Shown: positions 14,457 through 26,680, counted from the first letter of the stretch. The stretch: DNA of 64,000 bases from Deltaproteobacteria bacterium (GCA_021779095.1 JAJYBI010000015.1:10344-74343), one strand, 5' to 3'. Notes: generated by a model not told the origin, from the sequence alone. Numbers and translations: made by a program.

Positions 14457-17060
14457 GTGACTATGGGTACTACGGTAAAGGGACATCTGCAAGCGGCCAG
14501 CATTCCCCCGCTGCTTCTGAAGCTGGTACTGGTGCTGTTTGTGGCGGAGCTGACGATCGACAGCCTTCTGCCGCAGCTGCTGCCGGCGGTGCTGCCTCTG
14601 CAGCGGACGTTGGCGGATGCGCTGATCCTTGCGCTGGTTACGGTTTTCGCCGCCTGGCAGCTGTTTTATCAACCGGTTGCATCGTCCCAAGGGAACGACC
14701 TCGCCCTGATACACACGTCGCTGGCAAAGCTTGCGCTTAACGCCGCCATCGTTACCTTCGTGGTCGAGCTGTCCACCATGGCCATCGTTCCGTACCTGCT
14801 CGGTGGGAGGGGAGTGGTAAGCTGGTGTCTTGTCGACGCCTCGCTGGTGGTCGCCATAAGCGCTCCCCTGCTCTGGCTGATTGCGGTGCGCACCCTTGAG
14901 GGAGGCAGACGGTTTTCGGCGAACTCGCTCTATTCCGGCAGTACCCTGCTCGTCAAGCTCCTGGCTGCGTTTCTCGCCATCGAGCTCGTCTCCCGCGGGA
15001 TGCTGCATCAGTTCGTTCCGGAAGACGAAACGGCCATCGTTGCCGTTGCCGAGATGCTGGTGGAGCCGATCCTCGTTTCCATCGTCATCTGGTGGCTCGT
15101 GCTCGAACCGCTCCGGCGGATGGCGGTATCGGAAAAGACCCGTTTCGACGCGGTCAGCCTGCAGATGGTGGACGCCGTCATCATCACCGACGGGCAGGGG
15201 ATGATCCTGACCCCCAATCCGGCGGCGGAACTCCTGTTCCGGTATGCCCCCGGCGAGATGGAGGGGGAGGGCGTCGGCATCCTGTTCCCCGGGGTTTCGT
15301 CGCTTGCTGCGCTCATGGGGGAAAACCGGATGGCCGGGCCGGCGTCGGTCGCCCGGGAGGTGGTCGGCCTGCGACGGGACGGGACGCAGGTCCACCTGGA
15401 CGTCACCGTCAGCAGGGTGGCGCAGGGGGAGCAGTCGATCTGCATGGCGATCATGCGCGACAATTCGGAGCGCAAGTGGGCCGAGGAGAGCCGTCTGCAT
15501 ACCATCTCCCTGCTGGAGGCGACGCTGGAATCCTCCGCCGACGGCATCCTCGTGGTGGACACGGACCGGAAGGTGCAGGTCTACAACCGGCGCTTCGCCG
15601 AGATGATGGACCTCCCCTCCGAGCTGGGTGCCACCAGCAACAGCCTCCGGTTCGTGGAGTATTTCAAGAAGCTGGTCACGAACCCCGAAGGGTTCGTCGA
15701 ACGTGTGGAAGAGCTGTACCGCCACCCGGATATGGAGGACTACAGCCTGGTTACGTTCCACGACGGCCGTGTCATCGAGCGGTATTCCAGGCCCCAGCGG
15801 CTCGGGGACAGGATCATCGGCCGGGTCTGGAGCTTCCGTGACGTCACGGCGCGTATCCAGACCGAACAGTCGCTGAAGGAAAGCGAGGAGCGGTTCCGGC
15901 AGATATTTGAACAGTCGGAGGATGCGATCATCCTGTTCGATCCCGCAACCTGCTCGATCATCGATGCCAACCCCACGACGGAAAAGATCTACGGATATGA
16001 CCGGAACGAGATCGTCGACCGCGGTCTCGGTGCGATTTGTACCCCGTCAAGCATCGTCAGGATGCGGGACTTCATCTGCGGCGATCACCGTGAAGGGGCG
16101 TTCCGTGCGGATATCATCGACAACCGGCGGAAGGACGGTACCGGGATCATCGTATCCGCCCGTGGCAAGACCATCCGTCTGCAGGGACGGGATGCCGTCT
16201 ACTGCACGTTCCGCGACATTACCGAGCGGATCAGGCTCGAAAAGGAGGCCAGTTCAATCCAGGCCAAGCTGATCCATACCAACAAGATGACGTCGCTGGG
16301 GATCATGGCGACGAGTATCGCCCACGAGATCAACAACCCGAACAACTACATCCTGGCCAACGCGCAGCTCTTGGAATCGGTCTGGCACGATGCGGAAGCC
16401 ATCATGGCGGAATATCTGGAACAGAACGGGGACTTTACGCTGGCCGGGCTCTCGTTTTCCGGGCAGCGCGACGCATTCCCCGGGATGATCACCGGGATCA
16501 GGGACGGGTCGGACCGGATCAGGGACATCGTCAGCAACCTGCGGGGGTTTGCCGGGCAGGGAACGGCGAATCTGCACGGGAACGTGGACTGCAACAAGGT
16601 TGTTTCCTTTGCGGTCACGCTCACGAGCCACCTCGTACCCCGTTATACCCGGCATTTCAGCGTCGAACTCGCCGATGAACTCCCCCCGGTGAAGGGAAAT
16701 ACCCGCCTGCTGGAACAGGTCGTGCTCAATCTGATCATGAATGCGCTCCAGTCCCTGCCGGATCCGGAACGGGGGGTATGGGTCTCAACCTGCCACGACC
16801 GTGACCGGGGGACCGTTTCCATTACGGTGCGGGACGAGGGTGCCGGCATGACGGAGGCGGTTGCCCACCGGATCATGGAACCGTTTTTCACCACGAAGCT
16901 GGACCGGGGGGGGAGCGGTCTGGGACTCTCCATTTCCCAGGCGATCGTCAGGGATCACGGCGGCACCATGGATTTCCGGTCCGAGCTTGGCAAGGGGACG
17001 GTTTTTATCGTATCGTTCCCGGCGTATCCCTTACATAAAGGAGCAGATGATGAAGCATAA
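14457..17060 (+). CDS. Membrane sensor histidine kinase (6 TM, 3 PAS, HisKA, HATPase_c; NtrB-like)
   Basis: IAHEINNPNN H-box, QVVLNLIMNA, DEGAGM, PFFTTK, GSGLGLSI. Start is GTG 14457 or ATG 14463. Confidence 0.92.
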   Translation: MTMGTTVKGHLQAASIPPLLLKLVLVLFVAELTIDSLLPQLLPAVLPLQRTLADALILALVTVFAAWQLFYQPVASSQGNDLALIHTSLAKLALNAAIVTFVVELSTMAIVPYLLGGRGVVSWCLVDASLVVAISAPLLWLIAVRTLEGGRRFSANSLYSGSTLLVKLLAAFLAIELVSRGMLHQFVPEDETAIVAVAEMLVEPILVSIVIWWLVLEPLRRMAVSEKTRFDAVSLQMVDAVIITDGQGMILTPNPAAELLFRYAPGEMEGEGVGILFPGVSSLAALMGENRMAGPASVAREVVGLRRDGTQVHLDVTVSRVAQGEQSICMAIMRDNSERKWAEESRLHTISLLEATLESSADGILVVDTDRKVQVYNRRFAEMMDLPSELGATSNSLRFVEYFKKLVTNPEGFVERVEELYRHPDMEDYSLVTFHDGRVIERYSRPQRLGDRIIGRVWSFRDVTARIQTEQSLKESEERFRQIFEQSEDAIILFDPATCSIIDANPTTEKIYGYDRNEIVDRGLGAICTPSSIVRMRDFICGDHREGAFRADIIDNRRKDGTGIIVSARGKTIRLQGRDAVYCTFRDITERIRLEKEASSIQAKLIHTNKMTSLGIMATSIAHEINNPNNYILANAQLLESVWHDAEAIMAEYLEQNGDFTLAGLSFSGQRDAFPGMITGIRDGSDRIRDIVSNLRGFAGQGTANLHGNVDCNKVVSFAVTLTSHLVPRYTRHFSVELADELPPVKGNTRLLEQVVLNLIMNALQSLPDPERGVWVSTCHDRDRGTVSITVRDEGAGMTEAVAHRIMEPFFTTKLDRGGSGLGLSISQAIVRDHGGTMDFRSELGKGTVFIVSFPAYPLHKGADDEA

Positions 17061-24589: not shown

Positions 24590-26680
24590 ATGAGCAGCGA
24601 ATCCCATTCTACTTCCACCGCAGACCGGGTGCGGCGTCTGCTGGAGGTCGACCGGACCACCCTGCCGCCCGACGGCGGCCCCCGCTACAACCGGCTCATC
24701 TTCGCCGCGAGCCCCTATCTGCTGCAGCATGCGGAAAACCCGGTGGACTGGTACCCGTGGGGGGACGAGGCGTTCGAGCGGGCCCGGGCCGAGGACAAGC
24801 CGCTTCTCGTCTCCATCGGCTACGCCACCTGTCACTGGTGCCATGTGATGGAGCATGAGTCGTTCGAGGACCGGGAGGTGGCGGAGGCGATCAACCGGAA
24901 CTGCGTCGCCGTCAAGGTGGACCGGGAGGAGCGCCCGGATATCGACGACCAGTACATGCTCGCCGCCCGGATGATGACCGGCAGCGGCGGCTGGCCGCTG
25001 AACGTCATCATGACCCCCGACCGGCGGCCGTTCTTCGCCGCCACCTACCTCCCCAGGCATTCCCGCCGCGGCCTTCCCGGTATCATGGAACTTCTGGACA
25101 CCGTCGGCCGGGTCTGGCGTGACCAACGCGGCAAGGTCACGGAGAGCTGCAGCGCCATCGCCGCGGCGCTGGCACAGGCCGGCGTCCCGGAACCGGGCGA
25201 GCTCCCCGGGCACGAGCTCCTGGCGGATGCCGCCGCGCAGATCGCCTCTCTCTTTGATGCCGACTTCGGCGGCTTCGGCGGGGCCCCCAAGTTCCCCATG
25301 CCGGTCTACCTCTCCTTTCTCCTCAGGGTCCATGCCCGGAGTGGCGAGCCGCTGCCGCTGGCCATGGCGGAGGCGACCCTCAAGGCGATCCGGAGCGGCG
25401 GTGTGTACGACCAGCTCGGCTTCGGCCTGCACCGGTACGCCGTGGACCGGGAGTGGCTCGTTCCCCATTTCGAGAAGATGCTCTACGACCAGGCGCTCGT
25501 CGCCCTTGCCGCCACGGAGGCGTACCAGGCGACGGGGGACGACCGGTACCGGCGGATGGCGGCGGAGATCCTCACCTACGTCCAGCGGGACCTGGCGGCG
25601 CCGGACGGCGGGTTCTTCTCCGCGGAGGACGCGGACACGGAAGCGGTGGAGGGGACGTACTACCTCTGGACCCCGCAAGAGCTGACGGCGGTCCTGGGAG
25701 AGCATGAAGGGGTGATGGCGGCGCGGCTCTTCGGCGTCACGCCAGGCGGGAACTTCGAGGGACGGAACATCCTCTCCCTGCCGGAGCCGCCCGAGGCGTT
25801 CGCGGAAAGGTCCGGCATCGTGCCGGAACTCCTCGCGGCGGACCTGGAGCGGTGGCGGCTCAGGCTCCTCGGGGCGCGGCAGCGGCGGGAGCGGCCGTTT
25901 CGGGACGAGAAGATTATCACCGCCTGGAACGGTCTTGCGGTCGCGGCGCTGGCGCGGGGATACGCCGCCACGGGGGAGACCGCCTGGCGGGCGGCGGCGG
26001 AGCGGGCGCTGGCGTTCATCTCGACCCGGCTCGTCTCGCCGGCGGGGCGGCTCCTGCGCAGTCACCACCGGGACGAGGCGACAATCCCCGGTTTCCTGGA
26101 GGACTACGCCTGCCTCGTCTGGGGGCTCATCGAGCTGCACCAGGCGACCCTGGAGCAGTCGCACCTGGACGAGGCTGTGCGGCTCACCGGGGAGATGCTG
26201 CGGCTTTTCGGCGACGGGGAGGGGGGGCTGTACGACACGGGGAGTGACGGTGAGAGGCTGCCGGTGCGGATGAGGAGCGGCCAGGACAACGTGACCCCCG
26301 CCGGCGCCTCCGTGGCGGCGCTGAACCTCCTGCGCCTCGGGCGGATCGCCGACGACGATGACCTGAAGGCGGCGGGAGAGGCGCTCCTGCGCTCCTGCAT
26401 GGGGAGTGTGCAGGAGCAGCCGCTGGGGTACCTGTTCCTGCTGACCGCCCTCGACGCCGCCCACGGCCCGTGGCTGGAGGCGGGGATCGCCGGCGGGACG
26501 CCCGCCGAGCGGACGGCGATGCTGCGGACCCTCGGCCGGCGGTACCTGCCGGGGCTCGCAATCCGCGAGGCGCCGGGGGATGGGGCACTCACGGTGCACA
26601 TCTGCGCCGCCGGCGCCTGCCGTCCGCCGGTGTCGTCCGTCGCGGAGCTGGAGGCGCTGCTGGACGGGCTGGGGGAGTAG
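24590..26680 (+). CDS. YyaL/SPATA20-family protein, copy 2
   Basis: Same motif set ([36 protein letters not shown]); AAGAGG RBS before ATG 24590. Confidence 0.92.

Follow-up and report, generated by a model that had tools for sequence, protein, structure and literature searches.

A widespread, apparently undescribed five-gene cassette with a NosL-family protein, a type VII ABC transporter and a new eight-helix membrane protein, probably handling copper(I) outside the cell membrane

Results

A conserved five-gene core within a composite region

Within a 64,000-nucleotide stretch of DNA from a Deltaproteobacteria bacterium (hereafter, the window), the region between positions 14457 and 26680 is a composite, in which a conserved five-gene core (18517–22101) is accompanied by lineage-specific additions. 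This core is a widespread and apparently undescribed cassette, of which we found no published description, and its probable function is to handle copper(I) on the outer side of the cell membrane, with no link to nitrous-oxide reductase. The interpretation that we favor, at a probability of about 0.55, is that its ABC transporter drives the hand-over of Cu(I) between a NosL-family protein and a Cys/His membrane protein (Mem) in general envelope copper handling, with the two-component system (TCS) and the YyaL proteins as additions of this lineage.

ORF calls and Pfam searches confirmed the nine same-strand genes, with the families, motifs and gaps that had been described in an earlier sequence-only reading; opposite-strand genes flank the block on either side. 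The kinase and regulator genes overlap by 14 nt, and a 57-bp gap follows before nosL. Overlaps of 4 nt (NosL/small ORF), 14 nt (small ORF/permease) and 4 nt (ATPase/Mem), together with a gap of 1 nt between the permease and ATPase genes, join the five core genes, while 48 bp separate Mem from YyaL-1 and 388 bp (24202–24589) lie between both YyaL genes. The motifs CPVCGM, GPMG, C88, C168-C169, HHCPFC and CHWC (twice) were all found. The features are as follows:

14457–17060, plus strand: sensor histidine kinase, HK (Pfam)
17047–18459, plus strand: NtrC-type sigma-54-dependent response regulator, RR (Pfam, NCBIfam)
18517–18990, plus strand: NosL-family protein, soluble periplasmic, putative Cu(I) chaperone (PF05573)
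18987–19304, plus strand: 105-aa membrane protein, single-pass, family unnamed (a homologous ORF occupies this place in 66 of 80 loci)
19291–20424, plus strand: FtsX-type (type VII, MacB/LolC-like) ABC permease (PF02687, AF2, Foldseek)
20426–21112, plus strand: ABC ATPase of the FtsE/LolD/MacB-NBD type (PF00005)
21109–22101, plus strand: Mem, 330-aa protein with eight transmembrane (TM) helices, new family (AF2, conservation)
22150–24201, plus strand: YyaL-1, DUF255 (PF03190)
24267–24438, no strand assigned: copy of a dispersed repeat of ~172 bp, MITE/REP-like (blastn against the genome)
24590–26680, plus strand: YyaL-2, paralogue of YyaL-1 (PF03190)

The sample from which the genome was recovered is a mine-drainage metagenome, and metatranscriptomes from the same study give no coverage of the locus.

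The cassette, formed by NosL, the 105-aa protein, the FtsX permease, the ABC ATPase and Mem, was syntenic in 80 species, including members of Nitrospirota, Desulfobacterota, Geobacterales and Methylococcales, among others. This gene order was kept in nearly all of the 80 loci across phyla, with NosL being relocated downstream of Mem in Methylococcales, and the ABC stop and Mem start, which overlap here, typically overlap or abut in other loci as well. The conserved neighborhood comprises the five core genes (80 loci), but neither YyaL nor the kinase (0/80 each).

Components of the cassette

The NosL-like protein proved to be a true member of its family with canonical metal motifs, as judged by Pfam (PF05573, cut-off 24, score 99.1 bits with E 3e-28 over positions 1–130 of 131) and by alignment with solved NosL proteins. 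It matched the solved structures 7og7, 7osf and 7znq (E 1e-12 to 5e-11), and its motifs C34-x-x-C37-G-M39 (CPVCGM) and G115-P-M117-G (GPMG) aligned to CHLCGM/CHVCGM and GAMG of 7og7 and 7osf, respectively. Across 93 cassette sequences, conservation of these metal-motif residues was 95% or higher. Its cleavable signal peptide (AFA/A) is of type I with no lipobox, and the signal peptides of 89 of 91 cassette NosLs are likewise of type I without a lipobox; only two of the 91 carry a lipobox-like motif. The protein is described as a putative Cu(I) chaperone, predicted from its sequence to be soluble in the periplasm.

No match in Pfam or NCBIfam was obtained for the 105-aa protein, in which the motifs TDLxLFTxARYTR, PFQ and EHFPxG are conserved, and the positive-inside rule favors neither orientation. 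The permease is a type VII ABC protein of the MacB/LolCDE/FtsEX superfamily (PF02687 FtsX, 30.8 bits, cut-off 25.5). Its AF2 model (pLDDT 78.6) shows four TM helices; TM1 and TM2 are separated by a periplasmic domain of ~165 aa that contains no conserved Cys. Foldseek matched this model to LolE, LolC, MacB, HrtB and BceB with a probability of 1.0 and E-values down to 5e-14 (9rlc_E, 5gko_A, 5xu1_M and 7w7a_B at probability 1.0; 5udf and 5naa for the periplasmic domain). At the sequence level, no PDB entry was matched by phmmer, and the scores for the LolC/E, MacB and FtsX equivalogs stayed far below the cut-offs (TIGR02212 lolCE, 40 bits versus 362). The ATPase belongs to PF00005 (ABC_tran), and its best NCBIfam matches, FtsE, LolD and MacB, all scored under their cut-offs. 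NCBIfam and Foldseek thus uphold the earlier assignment of this ABC transporter to the MacB/LolCDE type and not to the NosFY type. A tripartite MacAB-TolC pump was discarded, given that a membrane-fusion protein and an outer-membrane channel are absent from the window; elsewhere they are found in a minority of loci, as Cus-type sets.

Mem is an eight-TM protein that constitutes a new family, with 1,182 representatives at 50% identity. No match was found in Pfam (26 members searched) or in NCBIfam, and the AF2 model (pLDDT 86.5, pTM 0.86) had no match by Foldseek in the PDB (best E 0.16; hits that spanned the protein had TM-scores no higher than 0.27). Its candidate ligands, M87-C88, C168-C169 and H249-(H250)-C251-P-F-(C254), are distributed over three loops with a predicted periplasmic location; loops L2, L4 and L6 are put outside the cell by their Lys+Arg bias, with a low content of these residues. 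While M87, C88, C168, C169 and C251 are invariant and H249 is near-invariant in members down to 28% identity, H250 and C254 are not invariant in the distant ones. An assignment of Mem to DsbB, VKOR or DsbD-CcdA was rejected on the basis of the Pfam and NCBIfam searches and of the Foldseek PDB hits, which include neither Dsb nor VKOR proteins.

Copper genes around the cassette

Copper-related genes within 10 kb of the cassette were counted in the 53 loci with a length of 12 kb or more. In 25 of them we found CusA/CzcA-family RND genes (a family that alone does not tell Cu/Ag from Zn/Co/Cd pumps), CusB/YHS adaptors, copper P-type ATPases (CopA), multicopper oxidases, Sco1 or NosL fusions, and 31 loci were positive when TlpA-like redoxins and DsbD were also counted. 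Accordingly, 28 of the 53 had no copper gene, and 22 were free, over this distance, of every copper or thiol-redox gene searched for; the background of copper genes near random loci is a rough estimate from this genome. The copper P-type ATPase neighbor exceeded the cut-off of TIGR01511 (584 versus 397 bits). Some cassettes share their line of genes with OEP, CusB-like adaptor, RND pump and YtkA genes, and others with CzcB/RND genes. In 19 of 20 cases, TlpA/ResA-like redoxins shared the strand of the cassette. The operon itself includes SCO1 in both the closest relative and a Syntrophobacteraceae MAG; in loci L088 and L034 this gene is found between those for the regulator and NosL, and L054 has it near the cassette. 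These neighborhoods fit the soft-metal role that had been suggested earlier, most likely for copper. Judging from family membership and neighbors, copper is most likely the cargo.

Absence of nitrous-oxide reductase genes

In line with the previous description of the window, no nosZ, nosD or nosY was detected in it, nor in the genome (91% complete). Searches by tblastn with the P. mandelii NosZ, NosD and NosY proteins gave no match in the genome or in the 80 loci. The nosZ model TIGR04246 was negative in all 41 genomes of the order (this one and 40 relatives) and in 50 cassette-bearing genomes, which supports the claimed independence of the system from nosZ (0/91 genomes). A positive control was recovered at E 1e-147. 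A NosDFYL-type maturation system for N2O reductase was consequently dismissed, since nosZ, nosD and a NosY-type permease were all not found.

Two-component system and YyaL genes

The HK comprises a multi-pass membrane N-terminus of ~230 aa with no Pfam match, three PAS domains and HisKA/HATPase_c, and the RR is composed of REC, Sigma54_activat (AAA+) and HTH_8 (Fis HTH) domains. Both are lineage-specific neighbors outside the conserved cassette. A counterpart of the HK at 50% coverage or more was found in none of the 80 loci, and a 5'-end fragment in L088 carries HATPase_c. The adjacency of TCS and YyaL genes is conserved in only one close relative, at 76–81% amino-acid identity; the RR is 81% identical to the L088 regulator. 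In a tree of 30 regulators, the cassette-adjacent ones fell in five separate places, with only those of the window and L088 pairing up, and the RR grouped with paralogues of its own genome and not with the cassette-adjacent regulators of other lineages.

Both YyaL proteins carry CHWC and belong to Thioredox_DsbH/DUF255 (PF03190; 232.7 bits for YyaL-1 and 246.3 bits for YyaL-2, cut-off 27). In YyaL-1, the thioredoxin-like DUF255 domain is followed by a helical C-terminal region. Since no signal peptide was found, both are probably cytoplasmic, on the opposite side of the membrane from all other ligand sets. The two are paralogues (65% identity) and, by tblastn, the only YyaL copies in the genome. 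Their genes are neighbors specific to the lineage of the window: in L088, YyaL-1 follows Mem with 77% identity over the 111 aa available. The gap between them holds a dispersed repeat that the sequence-only reading had omitted; the genome has 15 or more other copies (78–94% identity, blastn), and a 21-nt inverted repeat (24224–24244 and 24525–24545) flanks this one. Word depth in the DNA run was up to 540 at the repeat versus roughly 10–60 elsewhere.

Discussion

In the mechanism that we propose, NosL and Mem would pass Cu(I) between them on the outer side of the inner membrane. The permease would be homodimeric, and cytoplasmic ATP hydrolysis would drive the hand-over by mechanotransmission via its periplasmic domain, itself devoid of a conserved thiol ligand. 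The cassette would in this respect resemble NosFY driving Cu(I) from NosL through NosD, with another ABC class and no N2O reductase. It may supply Sco/TlpA-type maturation factors, hand off to Cus-type efflux, or both, so serving general envelope copper handling instead of a single dedicated client enzyme. Contacts among NosL, FtsX and Mem are assumed here, and we infer both the formation of a physical complex and the direction of transfer.

Several other explanations were considered. It had been claimed that all nine genes form one sigma-54/TCS-controlled pathway with YyaL in metal or thiol trafficking, a view consistent with their single strand and short gaps, with the recurrence of the TCS–cassette–YyaL order in one relative, with the HK and sigma-54 regulator pairs that adjoin cassettes in L034, L054 and L038, the last being the locus of the cultured carrier Pelotalea chapellei DSM 13688, and with the absence of further YyaL genes from the genome. 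This claim was not supported, and we regard it as improbable: conservation as a unit is limited to five genes, YyaL and kinase are missing from all 80 distant loci, YyaL is probably cytoplasmic while the other ligand sets are periplasmic, and a mobile repeat separates YyaL-2. The proposed TCS control fared no better, because the cassette-adjacent regulators are polyphyletic and not orthologous (5 changes for 6 labels, a value as low in 173 of 500 shuffles), sigma-54 regulators within 10 kb (11/80 loci) are near a rough chance expectation, and the -24/-12 motif TGGCAC-N5-TTGCW was absent from the 450 nt upstream of NosL (best 6/11) and not clearly enriched across loci (6/63 versus 4.7% background). 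As to regulation of the cassette, which we infer, the TCS may exert it here. A different cargo, such as Ag, Hg, Zn or Cd, seems to us very improbable. The mine-drainage origin of the sample, the Cu/Ag and Zn/Co/Cd pumps spanned by the neighboring RND family, and the Zn as well as Cu binding and MerB-like fold of NosL (PMC13685413, PMC10114901) would suit it, but the specific neighbors are of the copper type (the P-type ATPase, multicopper oxidase, SCO1 and a YHS-tagged CusB-like adaptor), and the annotated neighbor clusters contain no mer-like genes.

A dedicated function in CuA/CuB maturation of a heme-copper oxidase, in which NosL would be a PCuAC-like donor acting with Sco1 and TlpA, agrees with the coxBAC operon of this genome (CuA motif in CoxB), the positions of SCO1 described above, TlpA-like redoxins being the commonest in-strand partner, and the co-occurrence of Mem and COX2 in the order (23/2 versus 9/7; Fisher p = 0.017, not corrected for phylogeny). 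We nevertheless hold it to be unlikely, as no COX2/CuA domain is present in 18 of 50 cassette-bearing genomes, and in 2 of 25 within the order (two are 100% complete), nine cox-bearing genomes are without the cassette, and many cassettes are in efflux operons instead. Little more can be said for a mainly thiol-disulfide redox function, with metal being secondary and Mem acting like DsbB/VKOR or DsbD on NosL or other periplasmic cysteines. It would explain the CxxC (C251-P-F-C254) and vicinal C168-C169 of Mem, the TlpA-like redoxin and DsbD/DsbD_2 neighbors, and the thioredoxin-fold YyaL genes after Mem in this lineage. However, Mem resembles DsbB, VKOR, DsbD and CcdA neither in sequence nor in fold, and a cross-membrane relay by Mem is unlikely because its conserved Cys are all predicted on one side. 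In addition, C254 and H250 vary while M87 and H249, typical metal ligands, are conserved, and it is hard to see what a metallochaperone and an ABC motor would contribute to a relay that is purely redox.

The proposed copper hand-over by the cassette can be compared with several known systems. As in NosL-NosDFY (P. stutzeri cryo-EM structures 7osf–7osj and 7znq; S. denitrificans NosL 7og7), a NosL-family chaperone with conserved metal motifs is encoded with an ABC ATPase and a permease, and the ATPase would couple conformationally to periplasmic events without moving substrate across the membrane (PMC13685413). In contrast, the cassette permease is of type VII (four TM, LolC/MacB fold) and not of the NosY type, NosL is soluble and not a lipoprotein, the NosD beta-helix and the NosZ client are missing, and two extra obligatory membrane partners of unknown family are present. 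According to a 2026 review, clade III (lactonase-type) nosZ clusters lack nosDFYL and have a MacB-type ABC, possibly for maturation (PMC13685413). Going by that description, the latter may be a relative of the cassette, whereas the genome studied here has no nosZ-like match and its sole CuA domain is in CoxB.

The Sco1/PCuAC/TlpA route of CuA assembly and CusF-CusCBA efflux likewise deal with periplasmic Cu(I) through thiol/Met ligands, and Sco1, TlpA-like and Cus genes are recurrent neighbors of the cassette. Unlike the cassette, these systems work without an ATP-driven component and lack a Mem-like counterpart, and the cassette is also found without cox or cus genes nearby. With the type VII mechanotransmitters MacB, LolCDE, HrtBA and BceAB, finally, the cassette shares the permease fold and domain order, as modeled, and a separate ATPase of the LolD/FtsE type. 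It differs from them in a permease sequence too dissimilar to find any PDB entry, in a core with no MacA/TolC or LolA-type partner, and in its linkage to a metallochaperone and a Cys-rich eight-TM protein.

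Gene organization of the block

The nine plus-strand open reading frames (ORFs) described in the sequence-only reading were found again by ORF reading of the window; every motif quoted there was present, and its family assignments were confirmed with Pfam and NCBIfam.

Genes of the block (window coordinates, strand, identity and junction with the preceding gene)
14457–17060 (+), kinase with three PAS domains (HK)
17047–18459 (+), NtrC-type sigma-54 activator (RR); 14-nt overlap
18517–18990 (+), NosL, Pfam family match of 99 bits; 57-bp gap
18987–19304 (+), small 105-aa membrane protein, no Pfam or NCBIfam match; 4-nt overlap
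19291–20424 (+), FtsX-domain permease; 14-nt overlap
20426–21112 (+), FtsE/LolD/MacB-like ABC ATPase; 1-nt gap
21109–22101 (+), Mem, 330-aa Cys-rich membrane protein, no Pfam or NCBIfam match; 4-nt overlap
22150–24201 (+), YyaL-1, DUF255/YyaL protein; 48-bp gap
24590–26680 (+), YyaL-2, DUF255/YyaL protein; 388-bp gap (24202–24589)

Opposite-strand genes flank the block, an ISL3 zinc-ribbon remnant upstream and a gene for a secreted protein without known identity downstream. The remnant, in the stretch 13732–14177 (−), is a 125-aa ORF divergent from the kinase gene, and the ISL3 transposase zinc ribbon is all that it matches (27.5 bits). Upstream of it, on the minus strand, stands a TGGCACG element whose −12 is poor. 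Co-transcription was sought in three metatranscriptomes of the same study, which gave no coverage of the locus.

The gap between the two YyaL genes had been missed previously. It contains a repeat of about 172 bp (24267–24438), with at least 15 further copies in the genome at 78–94% identity, which is flanked by short GC-rich repeats and bracketed by a 21-nt inverted repeat (24224–24244/24525–24545). This looks like a MITE/REP-like element inserted between two paralogues, which are 65% identical and the sole YyaL copies in the genome. Given this gap and its dispersed repeat, YyaL-2 is joined less tightly than the other genes.

A conserved cassette of five genes

A locus scan in which a single genome represented each species gave at least 592 loci, the best 80 of which were kept. 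These span Nitrospirota/Thermodesulfovibrionales, Syntrophobacteraceae, Desulfobulbaceae, Geobacterales (including the cultured Pelotalea chapellei), Methylococcales, Aminicenantes and a Dongiaceae metagenome-assembled genome (MAG), and were compared with the nine window proteins by tblastn and ORF clustering. Wherever the contig was long enough, the genes for NosL, the small protein, the permease, the ATPase and Mem were found in one order and on one strand, the exception being Methylococcales, where NosL lies just downstream of Mem. Two NosL genes per locus were common (92 NosL ORFs in 59 loci). By the same two methods, neither YyaL nor a matching kinase was found in any of the 80 loci. The conserved system therefore comprises five genes, and the single nine-gene system proposed earlier is not supported.

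Mem has thousands of close relatives, none of them named. A profile search of 1.84 billion representatives grouped the family into 1,182 clusters at 50% identity, and among the best 150 matches listed those of full length are not fused to other domains and measure about 330 aa.

Two sets of matches were set aside. At L014:9135–11005, a locus of a Nitrospiraceae MAG, a degenerate cassette consists of NosL, a 94-aa C-terminal ATPase remnant and an intact Mem, and has lost by deletion both the small protein and the permease along with the ATPase's 5′ half; the truncated remnant marks it as a deletion derivative rather than an autonomous NosL–Mem pair. NosL matches on Bacillus plasmids and on the C. 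metallidurans CH34 chromid belong to orphan sets of the NosD/NosFY type, with no Mem and no FtsX-type permease. These represent a different system, and offer no route to published metal transcriptomics for the cassette.

The two-component system and YyaL as local neighbors

In the metagenome contig of the closest relative (L088; Mem 76% identical), the gene order is HK, sigma-54 RR, SCO1, NosL, NosL, small protein, FtsX permease, ABC ATPase, Mem and YyaL; its RR is 81% identical to that of the window and the start of its YyaL 77%. This shared arrangement indicates that the two-component system and YyaL are inherited neighbors within this lineage. In L088:4313–5406 the permease gene is called at 205 aa only, with an unassigned stretch before it, and the cause is either a frameshift, gene decay or misassembly.

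Pairs of HK and sigma-54 RR also adjoin the cassette in a Syntrophobacteraceae MAG (HK, RR, SCO1, NosL, NosL, then the rest), in P. chapellei (RR, PAS hybrid kinase, NosL, then the rest) and in a Geobacteraceae MAG, where the pair is divergent. In a maximum-likelihood tree with 17 paralogues from the window's genome, cassette-adjacent regulators fell in five separate places, and only the RRs of the window and L088 paired together. Sigma-54 regulators occurred within 10 kb of the cassette in 11 of the 80 loci, which by a rough estimate is near the chance rate for regulator-rich genomes. No −24/−12 motif was found upstream of the window NosL (best match 6 of 11 positions), there was no convincing example in L088 either, and no clear enrichment was seen across loci (6/63 vs. 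a 4.7% background). Control of the cassette by this two-component system, as put forward in the sequence-only reading, is possible but unsupported. In the gap between RR and NosL, a GC-rich hairpin (GGCGGC-GGGGACA-GCCGCC, 18473–18492) with no U-tract after it could serve in attenuation or influence RNA stability.

Both YyaL proteins lack a signal peptide and a transmembrane (TM) segment, and should therefore be cytoplasmic; the literature searched gave no bacterial function for YyaL. The practical outcome is negative: the two-component system and the twin YyaL should not be annotated in the window as parts of the system.

Properties of the cassette proteins

NosL aligned with the solved NosL structures of S. 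denitrificans and P. stutzeri, with CPVCGM on CH(L/V)CGM and GPMG on GAMG; among 93 sequences from cassettes, at least 95% keep these residues. Canonical NosL is a lipoprotein, whereas the window NosL, as already noted from its sequence, carries a cleavable signal and no lipobox. Lipoboxes are near-universally absent from the cassette NosLs, since an ordinary signal peptide was seen in 89 of 91.

By sequence alone, the permease had no PDB match. Its AlphaFold2 (AF2) model (pLDDT 78.6) comprises 4 TM helices and a beta-rich periplasmic domain and matched LolE, LolC, MacB, HrtB, BceB and YbbP at probability 1.0, with E values down to 5e-14, as well as the isolated periplasmic domains of LolC and LolE; the modeled fold thus supports the MacB/Lol-type class assigned before. 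There is no conserved Cys in the periplasmic domain, and we therefore read the permease as an actuator and not as a metal carrier.

The AF2 model of Mem, a confident one, has eight TM helices (pLDDT 86.5, pTM 0.86). It gave no PDB fold match (best E 0.16), nor did 26 members give a Pfam match, so that no function can be transferred from a relative. Lys + Arg counts of 1.6, 3.6, 1.9 and 2.0 in loops 1, 3, 5 and 7, compared with 0.35, 1.7 and 0.9 in loops 2, 4 (a long loop) and 6, indicate that the latter three should be periplasmic. All conserved Cys and His residues lie in these predicted-periplasmic loops: among members down to 28% identity, M87, C88, C168, C169 and C251 never vary and H249 hardly does, while H250 and C254 vary more among the distant ones. 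The small protein contains a single TM helix together with conserved TDLxLFTxARYTR, PFQ and EHFPxG motifs; the positive-inside rule is ambiguous for its orientation (Lys + Arg 2.2 vs. 1.9).

Copper-related genes near the cassette

Recurrent neighbors of the cassette were typed with Pfam and NCBIfam.

Recurrent neighbors of the cassette
CusA/CzcA-family RND pump (1,060 bits, above cut-off)
CusB-like adaptor with YHS tail
Copper-type P1B ATPase (above the TIGR01511 cut-off)
Multicopper oxidase
DsbD and DsbD_2
ResA/TlpA-like redoxin
488-aa protein, NosL domain followed by a Met-rich region (Pfam sees the NosL domain only)

In one full context the cassette stands in line with an OEP gene, a CusB-like adaptor, an RND pump and YtkA, and in another it directly follows a CzcB-like adaptor and an RND pump. 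Among the 53 loci of at least 12 kb, 25 had at least one copper gene within 10 kb of the cassette, a number that rose to 31 when redoxins were counted. Of 20 redoxin genes, 19 were encoded on the same strand as the cassette, as were 4 of 5 Sco1 genes. The window's genome, which comes from a mine-drainage metagenome, holds single copies of such copper and redoxin genes in 3.4 Mb, from which we roughly estimate a chance rate of a few percent.

The 488-aa protein (L022:13324–14787, with CPICGM in its NosL domain) also occurs at about 6–10 other loci, and its C-terminal part looks like an outer-membrane barrel. A TlpA/ResA-like lipoprotein at L030:4814–5338, from a cluster found in 20 loci, has the active site W-G-I-D-C-C-F-C, in which three Cys replace the usual CxxC. 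The window's genome encodes a second, orphan NosL on contig C19 (53885–54406; L002), with a signal peptide, CEVCGM and a Lys-rich tail whose last residues are CNCCD. This paralogue shares 50% identity with the first NosL of L088 and has no adjoining copper genes. Elsewhere on C19 are a multicopper oxidase (~12168–15269) and a Sco1 homologue (~18204–18602).

Relation to N2O reductase and to cytochrome oxidase

Searches with a positive control that recovered clade I NosZ (E 1e-147) found nosZ in none of 41 genomes of the order, 25 of them with Mem, and in none of 50 cassette-bearing genomes, which supports the independence from N2O reductase claimed in the sequence-only reading. By tblastn, NosZ, NosD and NosY of P. 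mandelii had no match in the genome or in the 80 loci, and TIGR04246 hit only the CuA domain of CoxB in the window's genome. This CoxB, encoded in a coxB-coxA-coxC operon (contig C52:68930–72669), has a CuA motif and, toward its C-terminus, two motifs for c-type heme (CLGCH, CLACH); no CuA protein other than this oxidase was detected in the genome.

Discussion

Copper is the cargo that we infer for the cassette. Rival readings are a pure thiol redox function, another metal, the nine-gene model, of which only five genes are conserved, and a cassette dedicated to Cox. For the last, Mem and COX2 are associated within the order (23/2 vs. 9/7, p = 0.017, phylogeny not corrected for), yet COX2 is absent from 18 of the 50 cassette carriers, and we therefore rejected dedication to oxidase assembly.

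The analysis establishes the families, synteny, folds, conservation and topology prediction. In the copper hand-over model, which is the reading best supported by them, Cu(I) would be exchanged between soluble NosL and a predicted periplasmic Met/Cys/His site of Mem, and a type VII ABC dimer would couple ATP hydrolysis to this hand-over; both complex formation and the direction of transfer are inferred. The small protein would be a structural partner, and TlpA-like redoxins, where present, would maintain thiols in the reduced state. The cassette would thereby handle envelope copper in general and, in one lineage or another, feed maturation of the Sco type or efflux of the Cus type.

If this model holds, ATP-driven periplasmic metallochaperone relays would not be peculiar to N2O-reductase assembly; they would be more general and would have arisen at least twice, each time from another ABC class. 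The model would also give a function to the unannotated Mem family, which numbers about 1,200 representatives at 50% identity, as well as to its unannotated small companion. It would further add a copper-homeostasis component in sulfate reducers, Geobacter relatives, Thermodesulfovibrionia and methanotrophs, for whose ecology copper is relevant through its supply (pMMO, oxidases) or through the stress it causes (mine drainage, sulfidic sediments). Our literature search found no description of a cassette of NosL, an FtsX/MacB-type ABC and a Cys-rich membrane protein, and in a wide-ranging review of copper homeostasis in bacteria NosL figures as the NosZ chaperone only (PMC7558416).

Tentatively, with a probability of roughly 0.3, the cassette may be a hitherto unrecognized, self-contained, ATP-driven Cu(I) machine whose evolution ran parallel to that of NosDFYL, in which Mem would represent a new class of membrane cuproprotein or a multi-thiolate Cu(I) station, loaded or stripped by soluble NosL, with a MacB-fold ABC dimer and the small anchor protein exerting mechanical control, and serving several clients (Sco/Cox, Cus efflux and perhaps clade III N2O reductase elsewhere). 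According to a 2026 review (PMC13685413), nosDFYL is missing from clade III nosZ clusters, which contain a MacB-type ABC; this ABC may represent a system related to the cassette. If the hand-over model holds, it may also point to the maturation machinery of clade III N2O reductases.
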